Numbered from the stretch's first letter, positions 4,344 to 7,488 are shown. The stretch: DNA of 56,433 nt from a virus (IMGVR_UViG_3300025467_000526:64001-120433); one strand, 5' to 3'. Numbers and translations: made by a program. Notes: generated from the letters alone by a model not told the origin.

Positions 4344-5261
4344 ATGAAAGAACTATGGGTAGAAAAATATCGTCCTAAAACAATCGATGGATATGTTTTT
4401 AGAGATACACATCAAAGAGAACAAATTGAAAGCTGGATTAAACAAGGAAGTATCCCTCATCTGTTATTCAGCGGTAATGCAGGAATTGGTAAAACTACCT
4501 TAGCTAAGATTCTACTAAATGAGTTAGAAGTAAATGATTTAGATGTATTAGAAATTAATGCAAGCCGTACCAACTCAGTTGAGGATGTACGTGATAAAAT
4601 TGTAAGTTTTGTCCAAATGATTCCGTTTGGCGACTTTAAGGTGGTGTTGTTAGATGAAGCAGATTATTTGTCTCCAAATGCTCAAGCGGCATTGCGTGGA
4701 GTTATGGAAGAGTATCACACTACTGCACGTTTTGTTCTTACTTGTAACTATCCTAATCGTATTATTCCTGCCTTACATAGTAGATGTCAAGGATTCCATA
4801 TTGAAAGGGTGGACATTACAGAGTTTACTGCTCGTGTTGCTACTATCCTAGTAGAAGAAAATGTCGATTTTGATTTAGATACACTAGATTCTTTTGTCAA
4901 AGGAACTTATCCAGATTTGCGTAAATGTATTAATACTGTACAGATGAATAGTATGGAAGGTAAATTGCATACACCCGAAAAGGCAGATACAGGGCAAGCT
5001 GATTATAAAATTCAAATGGTTGATTTATTTAAAGCAGGAAAGATTAGCGAAGCAAGAAAACTAGTATGTAGTCAAGCACGACCAGAAGAGATGGAAGAAA
5101 TTTACAGATGGTTGTATGACAATGTCGAGATATTCGGCGACGATGCTACACAAGAAAAAGCTATACTACGAATAAAACAAGGTTTAGCCGACAACACTCT
5201 TGTGAGTGATCCCGAAATAAACCTTGCCGCAACGTTAATTCATTTGAGTCATTTGGTGTAA
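4344..5261 (+). CDS. Clamp loader AAA+ subunit (RFC small / T4 gp44-like)
   Basis: WVEKYRP, Walker A GNAGIGKTT, INAS, Walker B VLLDEAD, SRC motif. Confidence 0.93.
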   Translation: MKELWVEKYRPKTIDGYVFRDTHQREQIESWIKQGSIPHLLFSGNAGIGKTTLAKILLNELEVNDLDVLEINASRTNSVEDVRDKIVSFVQMIPFGDFKVVLLDEADYLSPNAQAALRGVMEEYHTTARFVLTCNYPNRIIPALHSRCQGFHIERVDITEFTARVATILVEENVDFDLDTLDSFVKGTYPDLRKCINTVQMNSMEGKLHTPEKADTGQADYKIQMVDLFKAGKISEARKLVCSQARPEEMEEIYRWLYDNVEIFGDDATQEKAILRIKQGLADNTLVSDPEINLAATLIHLSHLV

Positions 5262-5268
5262 TAATACA

Positions 5269-5988
5269 CTAATCTCCATACACAGCTAACACCTCCTTCA
5301 CTGCGTTATGGCGTTCTATGTCTCTGGCATCGAATTCTACTATATCTAAATGTTTTAGAATTGGATGCTCTTGTAATAAATTACAAAAATCCATCAAGCC
5401 ATTGTCTTTTAAACGATCGGCTTGATTTAAATCTCCTGTCACTACCATTTTACTTCCCTCGCCTAAACGAGTCAACAGCATTTTCATTTGATTTACTGTA
5501 GCATTTTGCATTTCGTCTGCTACTATATATGCGTTTTTGAATGTACGGCCACGCATATAGGCCAATGGACTTATCTCAATAACACCTTCCTCTAGCATTT
5601 TTGCTATGTCTTTTTGATGATAATAGTCCGCAAATACATCAAATATAGGTCTTGTCCACGGTGCCATTTTTTCATTTAATGTACCTGGTAAGAATCCTAG
5701 ATCTTCATCTACGGACACGGCGGGTCTTGTCACTACGATTTTGTCCACAATCCCTTCTTGCAACATCTTAATACCATGCTGAACCGCTAGCATAGTTTTA
5801 CCTGTACCGGCAGGACCGATAGCAAATACTATACTTTTAGTTTCATCTTGGAGTTTTTGGACGTATGTGGCCTGATTAGAGTTACGTGGGTAAAGACTCA
5901 CTCTCGGCTTTTTCGCGGGAAGATACTGCGGAAAATCTATAATGTTAACTTCTGATGTAAAACGCTTTTTCACTCGTTGTTTACTCAT
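5269..5988 (-). CDS. phoH: PhoH-like ATPase
   Basis: GPAGTGKT, TRPAV..DEDLGFLPG, PLAYMRGRTF, DEMQN, TRLGEGSK, GDLNQAD, RHNAV. Confidence 0.96.
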   Translation of the reverse strand: MSKQRVKKRFTSEVNIIDFPQYLPAKKPRVSLYPRNSNQATYVQKLQDETKSIVFAIGPAGTGKTMLAVQHGIKMLQEGIVDKIVVTRPAVSVDEDLGFLPGTLNEKMAPWTRPIFDVFADYYHQKDIAKMLEEGVIEISPLAYMRGRTFKNAYIVADEMQNATVNQMKMLLTRLGEGSKMVVTGDLNQADRLKDNGLMDFCNLLQEHPILKHLDIVEFDARDIERHNAVKEVLAVYGD

Positions 5989-5996
5989 TAAGTTGC

Positions 5997-6069
5997 TCCT
6001 ACTTTACTGTTAAAGTAGGACTTGTAGTGACCGCCTTTGATAACTACAGAGGTCCTACACTATTATTTA
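5997..6069 (-). promoter_or_regulatory. phoH late promoter plus structured 5' leader with alternative hairpins
   Basis: TAAATA on minus strand (6069-6064); stems 6015-6021/6052-6058 and 6023-6028/6043-6048 versus 5997-6006/6011-6020, the latter covering the AGGAG SD. Confidence 0.7.
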
Positions 6070-6116
6070 ACGTATTCCTAGAAAAGTAAACTAATACGTT
6101 ATGATTTTGAACCAGC

Positions 6117-6126
6117 TAAATAAGTA
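6117..6126 (+). promoter_or_regulatory. Putative late promoter (overlapping TAAATA/TAAGTA), divergent from phoH
   Basis: TAAATAAGTA upstream of ATG 6149. Confidence 0.5.
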
Positions 6127-6148
6127 TAGAGAATTCTAGGATCAATAC

Positions 6149-6760
6149 ATGCACCACGACATATTAGATGTTATTAAAAACATACAAGAACTATACGAAA
6201 ACAATTCTAGCCTTGCGGTTTTGAAGGACTTTGAACGTGTTTTTGAAGAGATGGACGTATACGTCTATGAAAACTGGATCGATGGTGAATTAGCATACGG
6301 CCCTAAAGTGGACCGTCATTGGATTACAGCCGGCTTTATGTGGCCTAAAGACAAGATGCCTAATCCGACTGCTGGCAAGCGTTTAATGGAATTAGGTTGT
6401 AAAGTTACATATCAAAAGAGTCATTTGCTAGAACCACGCAAAATTAAAAGTCCCCAGGACCTACGTCCAGGAAGTAAAAAAGGTAAACTAGATCGTAAAC
6501 CTATTTGGATTGTAGAAGTACAGATGCCTAAACATATTGCTTTTGAAATTTATCAAGGCTACATGTTTAAGATGAAAGGTAAAGATAAAGACCATATGTT
6601 AACTAACGATCAAGGTAGTGCGCCAGCACCAGCACCGCAAGCACCAGGTGGTGGAATGCCTCCACCAGCACCAGGCGGAGCACCGGCACCAGGAGCCGCA
6701 CCAGGAGCCGCACCAGGCGGGGTAACTCCAGGCGGAGCACCAGGCGGAGTAGCACAATGA
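6149..6760 (+). CDS. Conserved jumbo-phage protein with Pro/Gly/Ala-rich C-tail
   Basis: Globular N-domain (YENWIDGEL..GPKVDRHW, KMPNP.AGKRL..LGCKV); low-complexity tail. Confidence 0.75.
   Translation: MHHDILDVIKNIQELYENNSSLAVLKDFERVFEEMDVYVYENWIDGELAYGPKVDRHWITAGFMWPKDKMPNPTAGKRLMELGCKVTYQKSHLLEPRKIKSPQDLRPGSKKGKLDRKPIWIVEVQMPKHIAFEIYQGYMFKMKGKDKDHMLTNDQGSAPAPAPQAPGGGMPPPAPGGAPAPGAAPGAAPGGVTPGGAPGGVAQ
6622..6755 (+). repeat. Coding GC-rich degenerate repeat (APG/PGGA units)
   Basis: Repeated GCACCAGG units, e.g. GCACCAGGAGCC twice in tandem. Confidence 0.8.
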
Positions 6761-7488
6761 AATTAGATGAAAATTTGCGAGCTGGAGATCTGAGAAACTT
6801 AGTTAAAAAAGTTTTTGAAATTGACAGTTATAAAAGTAAAATCGGTGATGATGAAGATATTTGTGTATTAAGTTTTACCGTAGACACTGAGGAACCTGCT
6901 AAAGATTTAGAAAATTTCTTTGAGATGGGTTATAGCTTTGTTTTGGATTCGGATGTTACTCCAGGTGAATTAGACGATGGTAAATATCGTGTATATGTTG
7001 AAATTGAAAGATCAAGACATATTGGCGAACAAATTTTTGAATTAATTGAAGGTGTTAAAAAATTAACAGGCATGGAAGACATGCGTTTTAGATATTTCAA
7101 AAGTTTTAAAAGCGAGCCTGCTACCGTCGAAAGTTTAAGTGCAATAGTACCTAAGGATAAAAATTCTTACAAAATTGCTACTCAAGAAAACAAACTAAAT
7201 AATTTTAGTGAATTTTTTAAACGTAGTTATGCTGACAACATAGTTGTCTTAGATGAAAGTATTACATTCAAAAGAGTGTACAGTGGTGAAGTAACATTTA
7301 ATATTGTAGAAAGTGGACCTAAAGATATAATTCACAATATGATCAAAGGTCCAATTTTATTAGAAAACAAAGACATGGCAGAAGTTATGTTTTTAACTAA
7401 AGTTATTGGTAACTATAACATTGTTAAAGTTGGCAAGACATTTATATTTGAAAATACAAACTGGGCTGTAGCCCTTGAAAGGAAATAA
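6757..7488 (+). CDS. Conserved jumbo-phage protein (243 aa)
   Basis: ATGA-coupled; N-terminal LDEN motif, EIDSYKSKIGDDEDICVLSF. Confidence 0.75.
   Translation: MKLDENLRAGDLRNLVKKVFEIDSYKSKIGDDEDICVLSFTVDTEEPAKDLENFFEMGYSFVLDSDVTPGELDDGKYRVYVEIERSRHIGEQIFELIEGVKKLTGMEDMRFRYFKSFKSEPATVESLSAIVPKDKNSYKIATQENKLNNFSEFFKRSYADNIVVLDESITFKRVYSGEVTFNIVESGPKDIIHNMIKGPILLENKDMAEVMFLTKVIGNYNIVKVGKTFIFENTNWAVALERK

Follow-up and report, generated by a model that had tools for sequence, protein, structure and literature searches.

The window analysed here, a stretch of 56,433 nt of viral DNA, is part of a 120-kb IMG/VR contig with an estimated completeness of 33%. Its minus strand carries phoH at positions 5269–5988, coding for a protein of 239 amino acids that matches the Pfam family PF02562 (PhoH) with 243 bits (E = 2e-72). 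PhoH proteins are P-loop ATPases with relatives among the RNA helicases and a link to the YbeY RNase. The gene belongs to the most widespread host-like genes of aquatic phages and serves as a diversity marker; to our knowledge, neither the function nor the regulation of phage phoH is understood.

Within a long run of plus-strand genes, phoH is the only sizeable gene on the minus strand. Being alone there, it must have its own promoter in the spacer of 160 nt that separates it from the divergent gene at position 6149, and the minus-strand leader element described here lies inside this spacer. On its other side, phoH adjoins a gene for a gp44-type clamp loader (4344–5261, plus strand). These two genes are convergent with only 7 nt between their stop codons (window positions 5259–5271), which leaves no space for a terminator, so that termination signals, if there are any, should lie within coding sequence. 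The divergent neighbour (6149–6760, plus strand) encodes a protein of 203 amino acids without a Pfam match, the C-terminal tail of which, approximately 50 residues long, is rich in Pro, Ala and Gly.

Relatives of this PhoH protein, with 75–100% amino-acid identity, occur in about 430–480 viral contigs; three related contigs are 345–383 kb long and 94–100% complete. The locus itself was found in 20 public DNA runs, which come from freshwater and lake metagenomes, and no RNA run was listed for it. Judged from these runs with the window's own locus, the habitat of the contigs with PhoH relatives is freshwater and lakes. The gp44-type clamp loader and the late-promoter motif presented below agree with an assignment to the T4-like phages.

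A putative late-type promoter box upstream of phoH

In the 120-kb contig there are 19 occurrences of NATAAATA; 18 are intergenic, and each precedes a gene on the same strand. The hexamer TAAATA is intergenic in 37 of its 107 copies, a five-fold enrichment given that intergenic DNA makes up 7.4% of the sequence. We infer that NATAAATA is the late-promoter motif of this phage, which makes the TAAATA box upstream of phoH (6064–6069, minus strand) a putative late-type promoter core of the T4 gp55-like kind. The box is preceded by GT (A, G or T in relatives), and the related loci have GTTAAATA, AGTAAATA, TGTAAATA, AATAAATA or even TATAAATA at this place, with TAAGTA in a minority. In T4 late promoters the box is located at about -13 to -6. 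With this geometry, a box at 6064–6069 predicts +1 at G6058, and by analogy the phoH transcript probably starts at or beside this nucleotide, the first base of the 5′ hairpin. A start at the base of the first stem, as had been proposed in a preliminary description of the locus, thus agrees with the late-promoter motif and with the T4 geometry.

Other late-type leaders in the contig are mostly 10–35 nt long and nearly all unstructured. Among those located next to a called gene start, the phoH leader is an outlier, with 81 nt from the box to the AUG and a folding energy of -23 kcal/mol. Several genes have only 10–14 nt between late box and AUG, which suggests that several late mRNAs are near-leaderless.

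The spacer contains a second late-type box, CTAAATAA, at 6117–6122 on the plus strand and 32 nt upstream of the reading frame 6149–6760; its reverse complement forms a block of about 0.96–1.0 identity in the relatives. With oppositely pointing boxes at 6064–6069 and 6117–6122, the spacer would hold two divergent late-type promoters. Between them lies a semi-conserved block (6083–6113, minus strand) with a consensus of roughly TGGTTTAAAATCATAACGTATCAGTTTAYT, which includes TTTACT at 6090–6085, 17 bp before AATAAT. Either a weak promoter of the sigma-70 type that overlaps the late box or the site of a regulator could account for this block.

Three copies of one word in the phoH leader

One word recurs three times in the leader: as GUAGGA at its 5′ end, as UCCUAC in its central part and once more as GUAGGA inside the ribosome-binding site. 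Five bases after the box begins the 5′ strand GUAGGAC (6052–6058, minus strand like all following elements), which has the same hexamer as the Shine-Dalgarno (SD) strand and is therefore an SD mimic or anti-anti-SD. It is followed by UGUAGU (6043–6048), the 5′ arm of an inner helix, and by the apical region of the 5′ hairpin (6029–6042), in which AUC (6039–6041) and GGU (6030–6032) can form a mini-stem and which ends with GGUC (6029–6032). Then come ACUACA (6023–6028) and the shared strand GUCCUAC (6015–6021), which is the anti-SD. UUUA (6011–6014) and UAAA (6003–6006) form the upper stem of the SD hairpin around a loop at 6007–6010, the whole extending over 6003–6014. The SD strand GUAGGAG (5996–6002) provides GUAGGA (5997–6002) as the 3′ arm of this hairpin and contains GGAG (5996–5999), with 7 nt between GGAG and the phoH start codon AUG (5988–5986).

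Three pairings can be drawn for these strands. In State 1, GUAGGAC (6058–6052) pairs with GUCCUAC (6021–6015) in an outer helix of 7 bp, and UGUAGU (6048–6043) pairs with ACUACA (6028–6023) in an inner helix of 6 bp, so that the SD is free. In State 2, the SD hairpin, UCCUACUUUA (6020–6011) and UAAAGUAGGA (6006–5997) form a perfect helix of 10 bp closed by the loop ACAG, which buries the SD. Both states use positions 6015–6020, hence the SD-free and the SD-buried folds are mutually exclusive. These are the helices of the preliminary description for 5986–6069; all of them are present, every pairing is exact and the exclusiveness claimed for them is real. State 3 is a register-shifted form of the 5′ hairpin, in which UGUAG-GACC (6059–6051) pairs with GGUC-A-CUACA (6032–6023): ACUACA then serves as partner of UGUAG (6055–6059) instead of the inner helix, and the apical GGUC as the alternative partner of GACC. 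This shifted hairpin is compatible with the SD hairpin, and the two coexist in the minimum free energy (MFE) structure.

The 5′ end of the leader also contains a start-stop GUG UAG (6060–6055), which is AUG, UUG or CUG plus UAG in relatives, TG-TAG being invariant. A leader-peptide reading was rejected, as this NUG-UAG at the extreme 5′ end, which has no SD, is the sole frame; it probably results incidentally from the pairing word UGUAG.

Predicted folds and their energies

The 83-nt leader has an MFE of -23.9 kcal/mol compared with a mean of -15.1 kcal/mol for dinucleotide shuffles (z = -3.0), and one in 200 shuffles folds as well. State 1 reaches -14.8 kcal/mol in the form first drawn and -18.7 kcal/mol if the AUC/GGU mini-stem forms in the loop. 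Taken by itself, the SD hairpin has -11.5 kcal/mol, an intermediate consisting of the inner hairpin and the SD hairpin has -19.0 kcal/mol, and the State 3 hairpin together with the SD hairpin has -23.0 kcal/mol. In the window sequence the SD-buried (OFF) fold is thus favoured over the SD-free (ON) fold by about 4–5 kcal/mol, and in the predicted ensemble the SD strand (5997–6002) is paired with a probability of >0.99. The barriers among the three folds were estimated at about 5 and 11 kcal/mol. For the nascent chain, the best fold is the shifted hairpin at 36–40 nt, the long hairpin at 44–60 nt and the SD-buried fold from 64 nt onwards.

The State 3 pairing means that the two states are not isoenergetic in the window sequence, and the SD-buried fold is the predicted default, thermodynamically as well as co-transcriptionally. 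Of the two-state system proposed in the preliminary description, the two exclusive helices therefore stand, while the balance between them does not. Given the 4–5 kcal/mol in favour of OFF and the earlier formation of the shifted hairpin during transcription, the ON fold may never be populated unaided in this sequence.

For 116 leaders, the difference ON minus OFF has a median of +3.1 kcal/mol (quartiles 1.5 and 4.5, range -4.4 to +8.4). Among the negative extremes, those of L022, L046 and L191 are artefacts of the constraints, in which the SD strand was mis-assigned in a few leaders with GUAGAGUAGGAG, and they do not affect the median. The balance is loosely tuned, spanning 12 kcal/mol across the family. 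The modelled gap is near enough to zero that a modest input could flip the fold, without amounting to a fine balance.

Distribution and specificity

Four overlapping sets of 80 loci among the about 430–480 related contigs provided 117 distinct leaders for inspection, and in every one of these relatives the element is located directly upstream of phoH. A pattern scan of IMG/VR with the hairpin loop yielded the full motif only directly upstream of PhoH reading frames; the remaining pattern matches are chance occurrences within coding DNA. A covariance model built from 83 leaders found exactly one match per locus in 100 loci (423 kb searched) and one significant match in each of the three near-complete genomes (345–383 kb, 94–100% complete). 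In the window, searched with filters off, it gave one match of 103 bits, the next best having 18.6 bits.

A search of positions 5200–6900 on both strands against Rfam 15 (cmscan, E ≤ 10) returned only noise and no relevant family, in line with the earlier statement that this is not a known Rfam family, and a literature search on phoH and riboswitches found no description of a phoH leader RNA. The nearest PhoH proteins of cultured phages, those of the Pseudomonas PA5oct group, Sinorhizobium phage Phosso and Agrobacterium phage Atu_ph07, are at most 54% identical, and no homologous structure was found in their phoH leaders. The element constitutes an RNA family that is new but of a familiar regulatory kind, so far confined to one clade of uncultured freshwater giant (~350-kb) T4-like phages.

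Conservation and covariation of the leader

Conservation was calculated as the mean pairwise identity per alignment column over 112 extended loci. TAARTA is kept in all 112 leaders, with an identity of 1.0 at five of the six positions of the box and A (93 leaders) or G (19 leaders) at the fourth. The 5′ hairpin has an identity of 0.86–0.93, with GGCGGU in its apical region nearly invariant, and the SD strand of 0.85–1.0, compared with 0.25–0.5 for the loop of the SD hairpin and 0.46–0.6 for the spacer upstream of the box. Codon positions 1, 2 and 3 of phoH have values of 0.82, 0.91 and 0.52, so that the constraint on the 5′ hairpin equals that on the second codon positions of the gene.

Covariation was evaluated in a model-based alignment (A2) of 100 distinct leaders that was fitted to State 1 and the upper SD stem, the cells counted being sequences and not events. 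An unfitted MAFFT alignment (A1) gave the same picture with smaller numbers. As the preliminary description had suggested, the phoH leaders of related phages were aligned, and in both alignments both helices are conserved, each with compensatory changes. Taken together, the comparative data make chance a very remote explanation of the element.

For State 1, 99.3% of the cells in A2 are paired compared with 21–61% in slid controls, and four pairs with seven cells are changed on both sides, which none of 500 shuffles reaches. In the outer helix the paired fraction is 99.6%, and compensatory changes occur at three of the seven pairs. The changes in State 1 include A-U to G-C in L024, L181 and L301 and G-C to A-U in L072. 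In L330 and L335 (IMG/VR contigs 3300042691_016530 and 3300042868_005134, with the leader about 75 nt before phoH), U-A is changed once to C-G and once to G-C, the latter at the closing pair of the inner helix. These compensatory events are few and independent, having arisen in at least three lineages. In addition, the apical mini-stem has changed from AUCG/CGGU to ACUG/CGGU in one clade with its pairs kept, and the family consensus given by RNAalifold is State 1.

The 5′ hairpin of L330 and L335 is a perfect stem of 13 bp with the apical loop shortened from 14 to 8 nt, and the complementarity of SD and anti-SD is retained. In this clade the ON hairpin is predicted to win by about 4 kcal/mol; it would be a natural 'locked-ON' variant and a useful control.

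For State 2, 93.9% of the cells in A2 are paired and four pairs with 31 cells are changed on both sides; none of 500 shuffles matches either the cell count or the covariation score. The lower, shared part of the SD hairpin changes by wobble only, as expected if both partners of the shared strand carry the same word. In the upper stem, U-A has become A-U in six leaders, and the arms remain complementary while the length of the loop varies from ~3 to 12 nt. G-U pairs are frequent: the pair that closes the inner helix is G-U in 45% of cases, and four SD-hairpin pairs are G-U in 15–27%. Since the plus strand would have A-C mismatches in their place, we take the structure to be read as phoH-sense RNA.

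The State 3 pairing is 99% paired with zero covariation. It is kept paired through conservation and is compatible with the data, and it explains why U6059 and the GGUC of the loop are invariant. The argument for OFF as the default depends on this covariation-free pairing.

In one sub-clade, GUC(G) is inserted directly 5′ of the anti-SD and pairs in both folds. In the long hairpin it pairs with an altered 5′ internal loop (CUC changed to CAC or GAAC), in the SD hairpin with GAC, which consists of the last G of GGAG and a following AC. This AC is present after GGAG in nine of nine leaders with the TC(G) insertion and in four of 86 without, the altered internal loop in eight of nine and in one of 86, respectively. 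The shared strand is thereby extended from 6 to about 10 nt, and the ON–OFF balance is still near +3 to +4 kcal/mol. Selection on the competition between folds predicts such a co-extension of both helices, which would be odd for two unrelated hairpins. In this reading nature provides, in this sub-clade, a neat case in which the competition between folds, and not a single fold, is the target of selection; we consider the co-extension our most telling observation.

A proposed bistable leader and its alternatives

We lean towards the interpretation that the element is a phoH-specific, cis-acting bistable leader of the sequestrator/anti-sequestrator type that throttles translation. The late-type promoter would give rise to an mRNA whose first nucleotide is the first of the 5′ strand. 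Pairing of the middle strand with the SD strand would form the 10-bp hairpin and block binding of the 30S subunit, while its pairing with the 5′ strand would yield the long three-part hairpin and leave GGAG free. With the middle strand engaged in the SD hairpin, the 5′ strand would fall back on the register-shifted partner in its own hairpin, and this fallback pairing would make the SD-buried fold the default, both during transcription and at equilibrium. As a net effect, the synthesis of PhoH would be strongly throttled and released by whatever shifts the fold towards the long 5′ hairpin or opens the SD hairpin.

Most plausible as release factors are a trans-acting protein, an RNA helicase, for which PhoH itself is a candidate, or temperature; the ribosome may also be named, and a small-molecule ligand is unlikely. 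Searches for RegA (PF01818) and RegB (PF10715) gave no match in the contig, in the three near-complete relatives or in the control genomes and, with the controls negative too, carry no information. It is an unlikely, if attractive, extension of the bistable-leader interpretation that an autoregulatory loop has this leader as its operator, in which PhoH would bind or remodel the RNA and thereby open the SD hairpin or stabilize one of the folds. If this were true, a phage PhoH would for the first time have an identified nucleic-acid target, and the function of a widespread 'auxiliary' phage gene would become directly testable. Irrespective of the factor, a leader found only at phoH and as conserved as second codon positions shows strong selection in this clade on how much PhoH is made or when, and with 70 nt it is a compact object for in vitro tests.

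The strongest alternative, possible yet in our judgement rather doubtful, is static. A 5′-terminal stem-loop would guard the late mRNA against decay that depends on its 5′ end, a separate SD hairpin would constitutively dampen translation, and the strand would be shared for reasons of compactness, without any switching. The predicted ground state does contain both the shifted 5′ hairpin and the SD hairpin, the hairpin begins at the predicted +1 without a single-stranded overhang, which is the geometry of stabilizing 5′ stem-loops, and the ON–OFF balance differs widely among relatives. However, the compensatory changes back the long pairing of State 1 and not the shifted hairpin, and the change in L072 restores State 1 yet leaves a mismatch in the shifted form. 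Moreover, the insertion in the variant clade lengthens both competing helices at once, and nearly all 117 leaders retain the 5′-terminal SD-mimic hexamer. These features argue against the static reading.

Regulation could also reside in promoter-dependent 5′ ends, which we regard as distinctly improbable. Here the late box would double as the sigma-70-type -10 element AATAAT, with the semi-conserved TTTAYT 17 bp upstream. Early transcripts of the host polymerase would start a few bases inside the 5′ strand and be locked OFF, whereas late transcripts, having the complete SD mimic, would be able to open. A scan matches TTTACT-17-AATAAT at 6090–6062 in 9 of 12 positions, TTTA is found 18–21 nt upstream of the box in about 90% of the relatives, and transcript-start-dependent SD hairpins are used by the T4 genes e and I-TevI (PMC3014915). 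Yet the -35 element is matched poorly and shuffled sequences give hits of this kind just as often (7 found, 6.1 expected), the start positions are purely inferred, and the upstream block might owe its conservation to the divergent promoter.

A metabolite-sensing riboswitch, as considered in the preliminary description, would use the SD hairpin as expression platform and the 5′ hairpin as an aptamer, with phosphate, a nucleotide or an alarmone as the ligand. Mutually exclusive helices controlling the SD and a very highly conserved hairpin sequence are what such an element would need, and we nevertheless consider it very improbable. The candidate aptamer is a single hairpin with neither junction nor pseudoknot, and there was no match in Rfam even at E ≤ 10. 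Any pocket would have to be built from loops that some sub-clades have exchanged or lost while preserving the architecture: the internal loop CUC/A has turned into a helix in the variant clade and is absent in L330, L335 and L279, and the apical loop varies in length and sequence except for (G)CGGU, which has pairing partners. The alternative pairings account for all conserved bases.

Least credible of all is a function at the DNA level or on the plus strand, as a terminator or insulator against plus-strand read-through or as an intrinsic attenuator on the phoH strand: phoH is the lone opposite-strand gene, a short U run follows State 1 and an AU-rich run its complement, but the frequent G-U pairs are mismatches on the plus strand, the complementarity of the SD strand would be left without a role, and an intrinsic terminator or attenuator was rejected because no U tract directly follows the hairpin (3 U here, 0 in the variant clade) and a terminator scan made no call at the site.

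Comparison with known systems

The closest functional analogue of the phoH leader, if it switches as its sequence predicts, is the lambda cIII mRNA. Altuvia et al. reportedly described in 1989 that cIII translation is set by alternative structures and that these are shifted by RNase III and temperature, not by a metabolite. Both are phage mRNA leaders in which one of two mutually exclusive folds occludes the ribosome-binding site and the other exposes it. The two are unrelated in sequence, however, and the alternative pairing of cIII takes in coding sequence, whereas all strands of the phoH element lie in a 5′ leader of 70 nt that has the releasing SD mimic at its 5′ end and a third pairing. 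With translational riboswitch platforms and ermC/cat-type attenuators the leader shares the sequestrator/anti-sequestrator principle, in which one strand takes part in two helices; unlike these, it has no recognizable aptamer, Rfam match or leader peptide.

SD-sequestering hairpins associated with a late promoter of the TATAAATA type have been described for the T4 genes e, soc, 49 and I-TevI (PMC3014915). There, the late promoter is located inside or after the 5′ arm of the hairpin, so that late transcripts are free of this arm and are translated and the long early ones are silent (PMC3014915). According to the same review of 2010 on post-transcriptional control in T4, no riboswitch or comparable regulatory RNA had been functionally characterized in this phage (PMC3014915). 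The phoH leader resembles these T4 cases in that the SD is buried in an intramolecular helix and a late-type promoter box is associated with it. It differs in that the phoH box lies 43 nt upstream of the anti-SD arm (6011–6020), which places the arm downstream of the predicted start. The late phoH transcript would thus carry the whole inhibitory hairpin plus an anti-sequestrator in cis, unlike the e/I-TevI type. Same-strand read-through into phoH is unlikely, since its upstream neighbours are all on the other strand.

The 5′ hairpin invites a further comparison with the stabilizing 5′ stem-loops of the ompA type, which were reportedly described by Emory et al. in 1992. As in these, a stable hairpin is predicted from the first transcribed base of the phoH mRNA; unlike in these, its 3′ arm doubles as the anti-SD.
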